A stretch of DNA of 64,000 bases from Candidatus Omnitrophota bacterium. GTDB lineage: Bacteria; Omnitrophota; Gorgyraeia; Gygaellales; Profunditerraquicolaceae. The translations under genes were made by a program, and so were the position numbers. The notes below the pieces were generated by a model, which did not search any database, was not told the DNA's origin, and was given only the letters and a program-made list of their open reading frames with translations. The stretch covers positions 22,846 through 86,845 of the forward strand of contig JAQTQJ010000002.1 of assembly GCA_028712255.1 (NCBI GenBank), given 5' to 3'. Below, piece after piece: positions 1,326 through 28,834 of this stretch; position 1 is the first letter of the stretch; every line of letters begins with the position of its first letter.

Positions 1326-2786
1326 ATGCCTATTTTTATATATAATTCCCTCACAAGAAAAAAAGAAGAGTTTGTTCCTTTAAATCATCCGAAAGTAAAT
1401 ATCTATACTTGCGGCGTAACCGTTTATGACGATAGCCATATCGGGCATGCACGAAGTCTTTATATCTTCGATATAATCAGGAGATATTTAAAATACAGAG
1501 GTTTTGATGTTAAGTTTGTGCGCAACATTACCGATGTTGATGATAAAATTATCAACCGCGCAAACGAACTTAAAGTGCACTGGCAGGAATTGGTAAAAAA
1601 ATATATCGGCAGGTATTACCAAGATTTGGCGGCACTTGGTATTGAAAAAGGAGATTTTGAACCGCAGGCAACCGAGAATATCCCCGATATGGTTAGGTAT
1701 ATACAAACATTAATTGATAAAGGTTATGCTTATGCAGCAGGCGGCGATGTATATTTTAATGTGAGGAAATTTTCCGGCTATGGTTTGTTATCCGGGCAAA
1801 GCATAGATCAAATGGAAACCGGAGTCAGGATCGGCCCTTCGGAACTAAAGCATGATTCTCTGGATTTTGCGTTATGGAAAAAATCAAAAACTGGGGAGCC
1901 GTCCTGGGATAGTCCTTGGAGCCAAGGCAGGCCAGGTTGGCATATTGAATGTTCCGTAATGTCGCAGAAATTTTTGAAGACAGATACGCTTGATATACAC
2001 GCTGGCGGAAGAGACTTGATTTTTCCGCATCATGAAAATGAAATCGCCCAGGCTGAGGCACTCACCGGTAAACAGTTTGCCAAATACTGGATACATCACG
2101 GACTGCTGACAATTAATGGCCAGAAAATGTCCAAGTCGCTGGGGAATTTTGTTACGATAAAAGATGCATTAAGAAAATATCATCCCGATGTTTTAAAGTT
2201 GTTTTATCTTCAAGCTCATTATTCTAGTCCTATCGATTTCTCTGAGAAAAAGATGACTGAAGAAAAGCATCGATATATATCTTTTGTGCGCTTAAATGAT
2301 ATTTATAAAGAGTATAGAGCAAAGAATTTGAAAAAGGTACTAAGATTAAAAGATGTAGATATCGTAACCGTAAAAGAATATGAACATAAGTTTGAGAGTG
2401 CGATGGACGATGATTTTAATACACCACAAGTTTTAGCCGTTTTGGAACAGTTAAAGTCATATGCATATCATCTTCATGCCGATGATATAGTTAAGAATTG
2501 GCCTCAATTTAAATATTCGGTAGATACAATGAATCGTTTACTTCGTGATATTTTCGGTATGCATCCCGATATGGCCGACCTTATGGTGGATTCGAGATTC
2601 AGGGATATAATTGATGAAAATCTTAAAGATACTAAAATAATAGATGAAATGGTTAAAGAGCGTACGAGATTAAAGAAAGAAAAGAGTTTTACCGAGGCAG
2701 ATAAGATTAGGAAAGATTTAGAAGTAAAAGGTATTATATTAGAAGATAGGAAAGACGGTAAAACAGTTTGGAGATGGAATTTCTAG
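1326..2786 (+). CDS. cysS: Cysteine--tRNA ligase
   Basis: Class I aaRS HIGH motif (YTCGVTVYDDSHIGHARS) and KMSKS motif (KMSKSLGN). Start is ambiguous between 1311 (TTG) and 1326 (ATG). Confidence 0.9.
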   Translation: MPIFIYNSLTRKKEEFVPLNHPKVNIYTCGVTVYDDSHIGHARSLYIFDIIRRYLKYRGFDVKFVRNITDVDDKIINRANELKVHWQELVKKYIGRYYQDLAALGIEKGDFEPQATENIPDMVRYIQTLIDKGYAYAAGGDVYFNVRKFSGYGLLSGQSIDQMETGVRIGPSELKHDSLDFALWKKSKTGEPSWDSPWSQGRPGWHIECSVMSQKFLKTDTLDIHAGGRDLIFPHHENEIAQAEALTGKQFAKYWIHHGLLTINGQKMSKSLGNFVTIKDALRKYHPDVLKLFYLQAHYSSPIDFSEKKMTEEKHRYISFVRLNDIYKEYRAKNLKKVLRLKDVDIVTVKEYEHKFESAMDDDFNTPQVLAVLEQLKSYAYHLHADDIVKNWPQFKYSVDTMNRLLRDIFGMHPDMADLMVDSRFRDIIDENLKDTKIIDEMVKERTRLKKEKSFTEADKIRKDLEVKGIILEDRKDGKTVWRWNF

Positions 2787-2870
2787 CAGATGGTCGAAGT
2801 TATAAAGGATCAAGACGCTGTTGGTATTTTTTTATGAATGCATCGGGTTTAAGAGCGTTGATTTTGTAGC

Positions 2871-3278
2871 GTATCCCCCTCCCCTTGTGGGAGGGGAAAG
2901 GGGCGGGGTAGGTGAAGGGCAAATTGACATCCACTGCCAGGAAGTTAAGGAATAATTCCACAGAAACTGAAAAATGCCTCTGGCAGGCGCTTCGTTACCA
3001 TGGGCTTGGGGTTAAGTTTCGCAGGCAGGCTGTTATCGGCCGGTATATCGTTGATTTTGTATGTTTTGAAAAGAAATTGATTATTGAAGTTGACGGTGGA
3101 CAGCATTCATCATCACAGGAAGATATTGAACGTGATCAATGGCTGCTTAAGCAGGGGTTCAAGATTTTAAGGTTTTGGAATCATGATGTGCTTGGCAATC
3201 AAGAGGGAGTTTTATCTAAGATAGTTGATTCTTTAAAATTGCCCCCTCCCTATCCCTCCCCACAAGGGGGAGGGTATC
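2871..3278 (+). mobile_element. Compact DUF559-endonuclease cassette bounded by ~37-bp GC-rich imperfect inverted repeats, each itself a palindrome
   Basis: Left arm at 2871-2908 is gtatccccctccccttgtgggaggggaaaggggcgggg. The reverse complement of the right arm at 3241-3278 aligns to it at roughly 30 of 36 positions. The arms are far more GC-rich than their surroundings. Confidence 0.45.
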
Positions 3279-3298
3279 TCAATGGGATAAAATTATGA
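2912..3298 (+). CDS. DUF559 (endonuclease-domain, Vsr-like fold) protein
   Basis: Core VDF…EVDGGQH…D..RD..L…G..ILRF.N..V is typical of DUF559. GTG start sits directly after the left repeat. The C-terminal tail LPPPYPSPQGGGY is encoded by the right repeat and the stop overlaps the tmk ATG. Confidence 0.7.
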   Translation: MKGKLTSTARKLRNNSTETEKCLWQALRYHGLGVKFRRQAVIGRYIVDFVCFEKKLIIEVDGGQHSSSQEDIERDQWLLKQGFKILRFWNHDVLGNQEGVLSKIVDSLKLPPPYPSPQGGGYLNGIKL

Positions 3299-3903
3299 AA
3301 GGTAAATTCATTACATTCGAAGGGTCTGAGGGCTGCGGGAAGAGTACGCAGTCAAAAATGCTCTTTGACTGTCTTTTAGCAAAGGGGTTAAAGGTGATTT
3401 ATCTTCGCGAGCCCGGAGGTGTCAATGTAAGTGAAATGATTAGGGAGATATTGCTTAATCCTAAAAATAAGATATCTGCCGAAGCCGAGACTTTGCTTTA
3501 TATGGCTGCCCGCGCTCAAGTAGTTGAAGAGATTATTAAACCTGCGCTTATGGCGGAAAAAATAGTTATTTGCGATAGATTCATGGATTCAACTATTTGT
3601 TATCAGGGTTATGGATTAGGCATAGATATAAAATTAATTAAATCCATCGGTAATTTTGCTACTAGCGGTATAAGCCCTGATTTAACTATTTTTTTGGATC
3701 TACCTGTTAAAAGTGGGCTTAAATATCGGCATAAGTGCAAAGATCGTATCGAACAACGCTCTATCGGCTATCATGAGAAGGTGAGGAAAGGGTATCTTAG
3801 GCTTGTTAATAATGAGCCAGGAAGAATTAAGATAGTTAAGGTAGAAGAGAATAAATTTGAAACTCAAGCTAAAGTCAGGGAGATTGTGAATGCACTTTTC
3901 TGA
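3295..3903 (+). CDS. tmk: Thymidylate kinase
   Basis: P-loop FITFEGSEGCGKSTQ and the DRF…S motif. Confidence 0.9.
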   Translation: MKGKFITFEGSEGCGKSTQSKMLFDCLLAKGLKVIYLREPGGVNVSEMIREILLNPKNKISAEAETLLYMAARAQVVEEIIKPALMAEKIVICDRFMDSTICYQGYGLGIDIKLIKSIGNFATSGISPDLTIFLDLPVKSGLKYRHKCKDRIEQRSIGYHEKVRKGYLRLVNNEPGRIKIVKVEENKFETQAKVREIVNALF

Positions 3904-27992: not shown

Positions 27993-28834
27993 GAGAAATT
28001 AAAGCAACTCAAATAAGTGTGGCTGTTACTGAATTAGTGCGTCGCGCTAATTTTCTTTTGCGTAAGGATGTTTTATCTGCTTTATGTCGCGCTTATCGAT
28101 TAGAAAAAAATAAGCGTTCAAAAGCAATCCTTAAGGCGATACTGGATAATGCCGCTTATGCTAAGCAAAAAAACTTAGCTATTTGTCAGGATACCGGTAT
28201 GCCGGTTGTGTTTGCCGATGTTGGACAGGATGTAAAAATATCCGGAGATTTGAAAACAGCGATAAATAAGGGAGTCAAAGACGGATATAAAAAATATGCC
28301 TTAAGAAATTCCATTGTCGTTGATCCTCTTTTAAGAGGAAAATCTAAGTTTTCACCGTGCGTAATCCATACGGATGTAGTTAAAGGAAATAAAATTAAAT
28401 TAACGGTTTTACCTAAAGGTTTTGGCTGTGAGAATAAATCGCAATTAAAAATGTTTAAGCCTACAGCCAGCACAGAGGAGATCGCCAAATTTATAATTGA
28501 TGCAGTAAAAAACGCAGGTCCTGATGCTTGTCCTCCATATGTTGTCGGTGTGGGTATTGGAGGAACGGCAGATTACGCTGCTTTATTGGCTAAAAAGGCG
28601 CTTTTGAAAAGGATTAGACTACAGAGGGGACTGTCCCCGCAGGGGACTGTCCCCGGTTTTGAGCGGAAACTGTTATTTGAGATAAATAATCTTAATATCG
28701 GCCCGATGGGCCTGGGCGGTAAGACTACAGCTTTGGCGGTAAATATTGCAACATACCCGACACATATTGCCGGGTTACCGGTGAGTGTAAATATCAGCTG
28801 TCACGCCTTAAGAAGCGCCTCAGTAATTTTATGA
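27989..28834 (+). CDS. fumA: Fe-S hydro-lyase alpha subunit (class I fumarate hydratase / L(+)-tartrate dehydratase family)
   Basis: ICQDTGMPVVF and GVGIGGT motifs. Followed by the beta subunit. Confidence 0.85.
   Translation: MREIKATQISVAVTELVRRANFLLRKDVLSALCRAYRLEKNKRSKAILKAILDNAAYAKQKNLAICQDTGMPVVFADVGQDVKISGDLKTAINKGVKDGYKKYALRNSIVVDPLLRGKSKFSPCVIHTDVVKGNKIKLTVLPKGFGCENKSQLKMFKPTASTEEIAKFIIDAVKNAGPDACPPYVVGVGIGGTADYAALLAKKALLKRIRLQRGLSPQGTVPGFERKLLFEINNLNIGPMGLGGKTTALAVNIATYPTHIAGLPVSVNISCHALRSASVIL

Follow-up and report, generated by a model that had tools for sequence, protein, structure and literature searches.

The DUF559 proteins, with E. coli YcjD as a member, form a large nuclease family of "unknown function". 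BoxC/PIT/TM motifs have been known since 1992 and occur in large numbers in E. coli, cyanobacteria and a wide range of other bacteria; we know of no function and no spreading mechanism found for them to date. Descriptions under the names BoxC, PIT element and TMECO are reportedly those of Bergler in 1992 and of Hoyne and Maher in 2000 and 2002. By definition the motif comprises a C-rich stem, a loop of 3-6 nt, a complementary G-rich stem, a 3-nt loop and a second G-rich block (PMC4666352). The E. coli version (the TMECO intrastrand-triplex motif; Holder et al. 2015, PMC4666352) forms the triplex in vitro on isolated single strands; stable triplex was absent in double-stranded DNA and in vivo, and a mobility-related gene was never seen near the motifs (PMC4666352). 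RAYT/REP/REPIN systems (REPtrons; Nunvar 2010, PMC2817692; Bertels and Rainey 2011, PMC3116915) combine one small nuclease gene, lying between inverted copies of a GC-rich palindromic repeat, with further copies of the repeat dispersed elsewhere as singles and inverted doublets; the gene is often single-copy and vertically inherited, and repeat copy number goes with its presence. Other systems of relevance are the Vsr-like EDxHD homing endonucleases, such as I-Bth0305I (PDB 3R3P; Taylor 2011, as named in PMC3424549 and PMC9403480), the Vsr enzymes, and MITEs with their parent insertion sequences (e.g. the Correia elements of Neisseria).

The locus described here lies in a 64-kb stretch of Omnitrophota DNA (the window). 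A unit of roughly 400 bp, consisting of a nuclease gene and two inverted repeats, is wedged between cysS and tmk:

1326..2786, + strand: cysS (cysteine-tRNA ligase), upstream neighbour; Pfam tRNA-synt_1e, E = 3.1e-131; context only, outside the cassette
2787..2872, no strand: spacer of 86 nt from the cysS stop to the left arm
2873..2908, + strand: left arm, BoxC/PIT/TM-type motif, sense; 36 nt (motif detector: 2875-2906)
2912..3298, + strand: DUF559 ORF, 128 aa, GTG start; Pfam PF04480
3242..3277, - strand: right arm, same motif as the left, antisense; 36 nt (motif detector: 3244-3275)
3295..3903, + strand: tmk (thymidylate kinase), downstream neighbour; Pfam Thymidylate_kin, E = 2.1e-45

An NCBI protein of Candidatus Omnitrophica (P0121) is 100% identical to the cysS product. 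In the repeat search the two arms, 78% complementary and 333 nt apart, align properly as inverted repeats, and the DUF559 stop overlaps the tmk ATG within the four letters ATGA (3295-3298). The anatomy proposed in an earlier note on this DNA is borne out by these data in all its parts: a 128-codon DUF559 ORF between cysS and tmk, two imperfect inverted repeats of ~37 bp around it, each itself palindromic (an 8-bp hairpin in both arms), a GC-rich element in an AT-rich setting (G+C 0.55 locally vs 0.39 for the window), a GTG start at 2912 just 3' of the left arm that ends at 2908, C-terminal codons read through the right arm, and a stop that overlaps the start of tmk. Besides the two arms, the 64-kb window contains no further arm-like C-block/loop/G-block structure.

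Beyond its first ~15 nt the spacer has no alignable counterpart in the 74 nt that separate cysS and tmk in the closest relative, and some of it may therefore have come in together with the cassette. The sole non-trivial similarity upstream of the left arm is a 13-nt exact copy, at 2856-2868, of the ORF region that encodes the VDF motif (3049-3061; repeat family D6). Its match score of 26 was equalled by 5/1000 shuffles and by 1/140 other window segments (p ~0.005). An older DUF559 3' end left as a relic 5' of the left arm, an idea prompted by the window repeat families D1 and D7, was rejected: tblastn with 120 homologues gave no match there.

The ORF matches PF04480 over profile positions 2-108 of 109 (E = 2.4e-39; 134 bits, cut-off 20.6), and the domain takes up residues 4-108 (2921-3235). 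DUF559 and REase_MTES_1575 are the only Pfam matches of the protein, and no known transposase class (DDE, HUH, serine or tyrosine) is among them. An endonuclease-like protein of N. gonorrhoeae (PDB 3HRL) matches residues 14-107 with E = 5e-22. In an alignment of 20 sequences D48, E59, G62-G63-Q64-H65, D71 and R74 are invariant and D61 is nearly so (at least 90%). With its conserved acidic, histidine and arginine positions kept, the ORF is a predicted Vsr-like PD-(D/E)XK nuclease. The last 20 codons (residues 109-128, KLPPPYPSPQGGGYLNGIKL) lie past the Pfam domain and are the right arm read through, and an in-frame TAG (2909-2911) separates the left arm from the GTG. The protein is 53-64% identical to proteins of Chlamydiae, Doudnabacteria, Clostridia and Proteobacteria; in contrast to these cross-phylum matches, the named best matches of CysS come from Omnitrophota only. 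This points to horizontal spread of the DUF559 cassette, which we count as support for the reading preferred below.

The left arm is laid out as a C-block CCCCTCCCC, a loop TTGT, a G-block GGGAGGGG, a 3-nt loop AAA and a further G-block GGGGCGGGG. On the + strand the right arm reads C-block CCCCCTCCC, TAT, C-block CCCTCCCC, loop ACAA and G-block GGGGGAGGG. In the left arm CCCCTCCC pairs with GGGAGGGG to form the 8-bp hairpin, and in the right arm CCCTCCCC pairs with GGGGAGGG. Both arms have the three-block architecture of the BoxC/PIT/TM motif, with the same 9-nt C-block, 3-6 nt loop, G-block, 3-nt loop and second G-block as BoxC, PIT and TMECO, and in the left arm's third block a single C stands opposite a stem A, which is equivalent to Holder's one-mismatch type. 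The exact TMECO consensus, CCCTCNCCC N3-6 GGGNGAGGG N3 GGGNGAGGG, is not matched by the blocks CCCCTCCCC, GGGAGGGG and GGGGCGGGG. Judged by sequence, the arms are a variant of the BoxC/PIT/TM class and not the E. coli subtype. The likeness extends to the way in which the known motifs occur (intergenic, on either strand, often as inverted doublets and in many bacteria, with TMECO #9 beside ycjD), and the locus differs from them, apart from being off the exact consensus, in that two copies bracket a gene and lie 333 nt apart.

The motif is predicted to be able to form a hairpin or cruciform. As DNA the arms fold with about -9.5 to -9.9 kcal/mol and z-scores of only -1.2 to -2.1 against dinucleotide shuffles; the z-scores are low because a composition of C-runs and G-runs folds well even when shuffled. 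The left arm shares the reading frame of the ORF; translated, it gives IPLPLWEGKGAG*, which can be aligned gap-free with N-terminal extensions found in homologues, and the spacing between arm and ORF is constant across the family. Its G-blocks lie 4-20 nt 5' of the GTG and could serve as ribosome-binding site. Searches for a known RNA family, promoter or terminator at the cassette returned nothing above noise.

The same arrangement recurs far beyond this genome. Among 80 homologous loci from many phyla, a sense motif lies at most 170 nt upstream of the gene in 62 and an antisense motif at its 3' end in 67, against a background of 39 motifs in 390 kb elsewhere in these loci (0.1 per kb). Alignments of left against right flank score at least 30, and up to 147, in about 60/78 evaluable loci (controls: 13-30), and seven loci have an inter-arm distance of 331-335 nt. 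Between loci whose ORFs share 70-74% of their nucleotides and 50-59% of third codon positions, the arms are still 88-93% identical, and among close homologues the right-arm DNA is translated in all three frames (PPP*/PPPxPSPQGGG, PLPNPPHKGEG and PSLTLPTRGRE). These comparisons indicate that the arms are conserved as DNA, and more strongly than the gene, and that the cassette is, as far as sequence can tell, the usual layout throughout a large DUF559 subfamily that spans phyla and has E. coli ycjD among its members. Chance or artefact is ruled out, since the arm-gene-arm unit recurs family-wide. The earlier note missed both the BoxC/PIT/TM-type architecture of the arms and this family, which shows the cassette to be no local oddity.

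Inverted repeats of this length can recombine, and "DUF559 domain-containing protein" is 14-fold enriched among the targets of programmed inversion predicted by a systematic survey (PMC9881135). The cassette could accordingly be imagined as an invertible switch, in which the 36-nt repeats would flip the 333-nt segment and turn DUF559 expression on and off. Such a switch is highly improbable. A recombinase gene is not adjacent in the window or in L087-L089, there is no promoter-like site within the cassette for an inversion to connect or disconnect, and gene and neighbours point the same way in about 65-70% of loci and not in 50%. The survey enrichment would also arise simply from inverted repeats that overlap the coding sequence. 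Arm polarity, constant in 62-67/80 loci, would be left unchanged by flipping and is uninformative on inversion.

At the syntenic junctions of relatives the block is absent, in keeping with the earlier note, which had regarded it as inserted. The two closest relatives (L081 and L082; CysS 88% identical) share the gene order of the window (ispD-ispF-hexapeptide-cysS-tmk-holB-PSP1), and their cysS-tmk gap measures 74 nt, without ORF and without C/G motif. In a third relative (L083) the gap of 283 nt contains no DUF559, and on the contig of P0123 cysS and tmk overlap without the block. From these sequence comparisons the cassette is best described as having been inserted whole into the cysS-tmk operon within this Omnitrophota lineage. 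The arms would have come with the gene, because the relative's empty site has no doublet and the 64 kb hold no other motif. Base-exact breakpoints cannot be placed in the window because the relative's 74-nt spacer is too diverged and aligns only at its coding ends. No target-site duplication is apparent: the longest direct repeat between the flanks fits the null in 58/59 loci, the window included, the lone exception being a 10-nt repeat at L003, and palindromic flanks (e.g. TTA...TAA) are indistinguishable from an extension of the inverted repeat.

The insertion thus far combines traits of several element classes. Terminal inverted repeats, as in insertion sequences, are present as 36-nt arms conserved across the family, and presence or absence at a conserved site among close relatives, as in homing endonuclease genes, is seen as well. 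One cognate target common to all insertions was not found, and the flanking genes vary between copies (cysS/tmk, glycosyltransferases, aroK/dprA, molybdopterin oxidoreductase). Elsewhere in Omnitrophota the copies occupy other sites, squeezed tightly in between genes that share one orientation. In Bradyrhizobium the cassette occupies one orthologous site in several species (shared flanks), which looks like vertical inheritance and not activity. The cassette of the window genome looks like a lone insertion, possibly no longer active, with no sign of dispersal in the 64 kb. A collection of plasmids yielded E. coli, Neisseria and Azospirillum loci and no clean filled/empty pair, its matches being mostly chromids or mislabelled chromosomes. 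Phage carriage was rejected, since 2.9 million viral contigs gave only 17 mostly weak matches; the motif lies downstream of the gene in 2/6 viral loci examined.

In metagenomes the exact left-arm hairpin has no DUF559 within 500 nt in 101/108 evaluable occurrences. Its distance to an inverted partner is bimodal, with either 14-89 nt (gene-less doublets) or 338-355 nt (DUF559-loaded), so that arms occur as gene-less singles, as tight inverted doublets and in the gene-loaded form. In the family as a whole, the inverted copies on either side of the gene belong to a repeat that also occurs, dispersed, without the gene; the window has no other copy. The further arm copies for which the earlier note had proposed a search do recur elsewhere, with and without DUF559 ORFs, but none more is present in the 64-kb window.

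The features listed above for RAYT/REPIN systems have their likeness here, except that a dependence of repeat abundance on gene presence is only suggested, by a comparison within one species that is phylogenetically confounded. The differences are that the window genome lacks a dispersed repeat population in the visible 64 kb and that the cassette enzyme is of the PD-(D/E)XK, Vsr-like type and not an HUH/Y1 IS200-type transposase, and single-strand transposition chemistry can therefore not be assumed. By analogy, the cassette would be RAYT-like in its working but not a RAYT member, its enzyme being a predicted PD-(D/E)XK nuclease. With the EDxHD homing endonucleases it has in common the nuclease clan, the position of a small gene squeezed in among conserved housekeeping genes, presence and absence between close relatives, the lack of a target-site duplication and a patchy cross-phylum distribution. 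In contrast to them, its insertion contexts vary by copy, so that no single cognate target gene exists, and conserved 36-nt inverted repeats on both sides are foreign to homing endonuclease genes; any homing of the cassette would need the repeat doublet itself as its target. MITEs and their parent insertion sequences resemble the cassette in their terminal inverted repeats and in short gene-less derivatives whose ends are common to a longer coding form. They differ in that the cassette has neither a target-site duplication nor a recognisable transposase, and its coding form measures only about 400 bp.

The comparison with Vsr (very-short-patch repair endonuclease) and with Caulobacter VsrA (PMC12907096) rests on the PD-(D/E)XK fold and on DUF559/Vsr kinship, and nicking is plausible; a difference is that Vsr genes have no flanking triplex motifs. 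A different view of the locus is that of a host repair or defence nuclease (Vsr-like or restriction-like) whose arms would be expression or insulation elements. A 5' RNA hairpin would occlude the ribosome-binding site and a 3' hairpin would stabilise, gene and elements would travel together by horizontal transfer or recombination, and the gene-less motifs would be unrelated uses of a stable structure. In agreement with this, the left arm abuts the start codon at a fixed spacing, its G-blocks resemble a Shine-Dalgarno sequence and its RNA folds with -24.6 kcal/mol; target-site duplications are absent, inheritance in Bradyrhizobium looks vertical, and the DUF559-containing VsrA acts as a chromosomal Vsr-like enzyme (PMC12907096). 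Nevertheless we consider a host gene of this kind unlikely. Two regulatory roles require neither identical inverted arms nor arms more conserved than the gene, and the motif is mostly gene-less and also found in tight inverted doublets of the same polarity as the cassette ends. In E. coli, PIT elements acted neither as promoters nor as terminators (Hoyne and Maher 2002, as summarised in PMC4666352). The partner cytosine methyltransferase is missing next to the cassette, where the neighbours are cysS and tmk; no cytosine-5 methyltransferase gene is adjacent in L087-L089 either.

E. coli offers the closest view of gene and repeat together. Its ycjD is 44-45% identical to the window protein, the 3' end of ycjD falls inside a degenerate antisense motif, and about 170 nt downstream lies TMECO #9, which is identical to #16, #19 and #22 (Table 1 of PMC4666352). 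Motif-matching places number 5-19 (mean about 12) in 42 ycjD-positive and 1-7 in 17 ycjD-negative genomes, a comparison within one species, made on a spread sample of matching genome records, that is phylogenetically confounded and comprises few independent events. Of all 5426 E. coli genomes, 651 have no matching place. By the count of Holder et al., strain 55989 has 29 motifs and IHE3034 has 1 (PMC4666352). The gene ycjD occurs in phylogroups A, B1 and C, and eefRABCD takes its place in eef-positive lineages such as B2.

The E. coli data also bear on a third explanation, in which the motifs would act on their own as hotspots of instability, with replication slippage and recombination as the means by which they spread or arise. 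DUF559 would have been captured between the arms of a doublet, or selected beside them as a resolver, and would protect the genome and not propagate the repeats. Motif loci in E. coli are indeed unusually rearranged (PMC4666352), the ycjD locus is a replacement hotspot that carries ycjD or eefRABCD, lineages without ycjD keep up to 7 motif copies, and gene-less doublets far outnumber loaded cassettes. On the other hand, the arms arrived with the gene, as the relative's site without a doublet and the window without another motif suggest, and the fixed inner distance (331-335 nt) together with the fixed in-frame spacing from arm to start points to a co-evolved unit and not to repeated capture. 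Also, an enzyme of this kind has no need to be flanked by its own substrates. A mere caretaker is, in our view, distinctly unlikely.

The reading that we prefer, and to which we would give about an even chance, is that of a selfish nuclease-repeat cassette, RAYT/REPIN-like by analogy, in which a Vsr-like gene is bracketed by BoxC/PIT/TM-type arms and was inserted as a unit. Points against it are the absence of target-site duplications and of a known transposase class, the lack of a further motif copy in the 64 kb, the single orthologous site in Bradyrhizobium, the copies kept by E. coli lineages without ycjD, the confounded E. coli correlation, the unplaced breakpoints, and the absence of stable triplex in double-stranded DNA and in vivo. 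Of the "small selfish or recombination-prone element" that the earlier note had suspected, insertion and conservation of the cassette are thus upheld, while its selfishness stays inferred. Judging from the anatomy, transcription would probably reach the cassette from cysS by read-through, with the G-rich left arm supplying the ribosome-binding site and the overlapping stop and start coupling DUF559 translation to that of tmk. The nuclease may recognise the structured arms and nick or cut them. Host break repair or gene conversion, with the arms as homology, could then copy a gene-loaded or gene-less unit elsewhere, and propagation would proceed by break-induced copying and not by transposase chemistry.

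Since the nuclease-repeat unit recurs across bacterial phyla, DUF559 may be the partner of the triplex repeats. We tentatively suggest, as a possibility that we rate somewhat short of probable, that YcjD-type DUF559 nucleases are the missing enzyme of the BoxC/PIT/TM repeats and form with them a second, PD-(D/E)XK-based replicator across many phyla. Cutting of the structured repeat by the nuclease would be followed by repair of the break, which would copy gene-less doublets or the loaded cassette. Literature linking DUF559 or ycjD with boxC/intrastrand-triplex repeats was not found in a search that covered few subscription journals, and earlier notice is possible. If true, cutting by YcjD-type enzymes would also account for the genome instability reported at triplex motifs. 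If gene and repeat have co-evolved, both questions raised at the outset become testable in E. coli K-12 with one deletion and the purified 117-residue protein. A practical point for annotation is that the P/G-rich tails and the N-terminal extensions of thousands of DUF559 proteins are DNA repeat read-through and not protein sequence.

The DUF559 gene of the window lies at the cysS-tmk junction. Its product and CysS are each 100% identical to an NCBI protein. A full-length DUF559 domain was identified by Pfam profile match (PF04480, E = 2.4e-39, residues 4-108), and the protein also matches the solved N. gonorrhoeae “endonuclease-like protein” 3HRL (E = 5e-22). The locus is organized as follows:

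2786: end of cysS
2873-2908, sense: left arm, 36 nt (repeat search)
2912-3298: DUF559 ORF, GTG start, 128 codons
3242-3277, antisense: right arm, 36 nt (repeat search)
3295: start of tmk, overlapping the DUF559 ORF stop as ATGA

The earlier note had described this ORF as bounded by GC-rich inverted repeats with palindromes of their own, and our analysis bears this out: the arms are 78% complementary, stand 333 nt apart and each carry their own 8-bp C/G hairpin. Its reading of the gene borders was likewise correct. The GTG follows the left arm, with an in-frame TAG between the two, the last 20 codons (beyond the DUF559 domain) are a read-through of the right arm, and since tmk begins at 3295 and the ORF ends at 3298, stop and start overlap. 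For cysS, the mechanical ORF begins at TTG 1311 and the database protein (486 aa) at ATG 1326. Apart from this locus, a GC-rich tandem palindrome at 28631-28660 (GGGGACTGTCCCC GCA GGGGACTGTCCCC, then GGTTTT) shows no relation to the arms and possibly serves as a terminator or protein-binding site.

Comparison with the closest relatives shows the block to be an insertion. Two contigs of separate sample origin, L081 and L082, carry the nearest CysS relative (88% identical) and share the synteny of the window (ispD, ispF, hexapeptide transferase, cysS, tmk, holB, PSP1); here cysS and tmk are spaced by just 74 nt, with neither an ORF nor a C/G motif between them. In the next relative (CysS 71% identical) cysS overlaps tmk, and in a third (L083, 68% identical) the two genes are 283 nt apart, with no DUF559 between them. 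Because the block is missing at the cysS-tmk junction of these relatives, a gain in the window's lineage is the parsimonious scenario; the spacers of window and relative are too diverged for the insertion breakpoints to be placed. Two side observations concern these spacers. An intergenic piece directly after the cysS stop, GG(G/A)TGG(C/A)TTGGGT..TTT(C/T)GAGCGG.G.AAG, is common to L081 (4608-4645) and L083 (1860-1895) and has left only a faint trace at window 2790-2802; this piece is possibly a short RNA or regulatory element preceding tmk, displaced when the cassette inserted. In addition, a 13-nt exact direct repeat, CGTTGATTTTGTA, has one copy between cysS and the left arm (2856-2868) and another within the ORF (3049-3061), where the conserved IVDFV motif is encoded. 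Translated in frame, the sequence at the first copy gives IGFKSVDFVAY and that at the second IGRYIVDFVCF; 5 of 1000 shuffles reached the score of this repeat, and the first copy could be due to chance or be the remains of a further, truncated DUF559 gene that came with the cassette.

The + strand sequence of the left arm is CCCCTCCCC-TTGT-GGGAGGGG-AAA-GGGGCGGGG, and the right arm is its reverse complement. The same architecture characterizes a motif first named BoxC in the envM (fabI) sequence (Bergler 1992), later PIT element (Hoyne and Maher 2000) and then TM/TMECO (Holder et al. 2015, PMC4666352), with the E. coli consensus CCCTCNCCC N3-6 GGGNGAGGG N3 GGGNGAGGG (PMC4666352). In sequence, the window arms are a variant of this class and not the E. 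coli TMECO subtype. The census of Holder et al. gives 3610 copies for 262 proteobacterial genomes and 23 for E. coli K-12, of which five stand in inverted pairs; the isolated strand forms a stable triplex in vitro, but not in duplex DNA and not in vivo (PMC4666352).

Arm, gene and arm form a conserved unit across phyla. From 584 confirmed homologues (one genome per GTDB species) the best 80, 46-64% identical to the window protein, were examined. The gene is patchily distributed across phyla, and the hosts examined include Omnitrophota, Chlamydiae, Doudnabacteria, Alpha-, Beta-, Gamma- and Deltaproteobacteria, Clostridia, Nitrospirota, Chloroflexi, Aminicenantes, Elusimicrobiota and others. Alignment of each left flank with its reverse-complemented right counterpart gave scores of at least 30 and up to 147 in about 60 of 78 evaluable loci, with gene-body controls at 13-30. 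Our motif detector found a sense motif within 170 nt upstream of the gene in 62 of the 80 loci and an antisense motif at its 3' end in 67, against a background of 39 motifs in the other 390 kb of these loci. Near-identical arms occur on three other Omnitrophota contigs, each time at another site: one copy lies between glycosyltransferase genes, one between aroK and dprA, and one follows a molybdopterin oxidoreductase gene, all of them wedged tightly between co-oriented genes; by a crude ORF heuristic, neighbours are co-oriented in about 65-70% of all loci. Alphaproteobacterial arms are 65-85 nt long, with a second GC hairpin in place of the 3-nt loop.

In N. gonorrhoeae (L086, NZ_CP119142.1), where the DUF559 gene probably corresponds to PDB 3HRL, a block of about 85 nt ending in a motif-type hairpin flanks the gene on both sides in direct orientation; downstream motifs at 2099, 2380 and 2661 recur with an exact period of 281 nt, as though a longer unit were arrayed in tandem. 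In the Azospirillum brasilense chromid (L085), unlike the standard cassette, an antisense and a sense motif form a back-to-back pair upstream of the gene (2356-2463), with no motif downstream.

Constraint on the arms acts at the level of nucleic acid and not of peptide. Loci with ORFs 70-74% identical in nucleotides (50-59% at third codon positions) have arms that are 88-93% identical, and the inter-arm distance is 331-335 nt in seven loci. The three P/G-rich C-terminal tail types of close homologues (PPP-stop or PPPxPSPQGGG; PLPNPPHKGEG; PSLTLPTRGRE) correspond exactly to one DNA sequence read in its three frames, and N-terminal extensions such as SPPLVGGxRGG and PLPLWEGxGxG represent the left arm translated in two frames. 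Alignment to homologues places the left arm at a fixed, in-frame spacing from the start codon. An ordinary host nuclease with the arms as its expression elements appears rather unlikely to us. Inversion of the unit as a switch is highly improbable: DUF559 is 14-fold enriched among predicted programmed inversions (PMC9881135), but such enrichment is expected anyway from inverted repeats overlapping coding sequence.

Arms of this type also exist as discrete gene-less doublets and singles. Further copies of the arms, for which the earlier note suggested searching the genome, occur in metagenomes, with and without DUF559, but not in the 64-kb window, which holds no arm-type structure besides the two arms. 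The exact left-arm hairpin CCCCTCCCCTTGTGGGAGGGG matches at least 120 metagenome contigs. Among the matches listed, DUF559 is absent within 500 nt in 101 of 108 evaluable occurrences, and those without the gene are mostly complete three-block motifs. The nearest downstream antisense partner lies at 14-89 nt in 35 gene-less doublets and at 338-355 nt in 6 DUF559-loaded cases, with none between 89 and 338 nt; a further 42 are single motifs. The doublets share the polarity of the cassette ends (sense, then antisense). Holder et al. describe motif surroundings as unusually variable and explicitly report having found no mobility gene associated with the motif (PMC4666352). Passive capture of the gene, or a caretaker nuclease at autonomous instability hotspots, is an explanation we regard as improbable.

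In E. coli the homologue is YcjD, 44-45% identical to the window protein. The K-12 ycjD stop falls inside a degenerate antisense motif 12 nt shorter than that of KE47 (L084), in keeping with a 12-nt insertion that has been reported for the 3' end of ycjD in ST69 and ST182 (PMC12817139). The fabI-sapF interval holds ycjD in phylogroups A, B1 and C and in ST69 and ST182, and eefRABCD instead in eef-positive lineages such as B2 (PMC12817139). Downstream of K-12 ycjD (L108, NC_000913.3, 1351040-1351406, ycjD orientation), a relic duplicate of about 70 nt of the ycjD 3' end with a degenerate motif is followed by intact TMECO #9, which is identical to #16, #19 and #22 (PMC4666352). Among 5426 complete E. 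coli genomes, 3332 contain the full ycjD 3' end with the query's two motifs and 651 lack any match. In a spread sample of matching records, ycjD-positive genomes (n=42) have 5-19 matching places (mean about 12) and ycjD-negative genomes (n=17) 1-7, a suggestive but phylogenetically confounded correlation of motif copy number with ycjD. Motif counts given by Holder et al. are 29 for strain 55989, one for IHE3034 and none for Salmonella (PMC4666352).

Simple transposition is disfavoured, since 58 of 59 loci match the null distribution for target-site duplications and Pfam revealed no known transposase class in the cassette. The sole candidate duplication is a 10-nt direct repeat, ACAATTAAGT, in an Omnitrophota locus (L003, JAKLQX010000103.1), which adjoins the left arm directly and is separated from the right arm by 3 nt. 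Viral contigs yielded only 17 hits, mostly weak; the cassette showed no promoter-like site, terminator-like site or Rfam family, and the window has no further motif copy. Because cassette flanks are common to several species of Bradyrhizobium and relatives, vertical inheritance is indicated there.

For the unit as a whole we infer, at roughly even odds, a composite scenario: the structured arms would be the substrate of the nuclease, and the unit would be copied by gene conversion or by break repair of the host, the arms supplying both recognition and homology. The proposed logic resembles RAYT/REPIN systems, the proposed chemistry homing endonucleases. Both components, DUF559 and the BoxC/PIT/TM motif, are already known; we found no paper tying DUF559 or YcjD to the motif, although literature coverage was incomplete and earlier notice is possible. 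The interest lies mainly in the family-level link between DUF559 and the motif, less in the single window copy.
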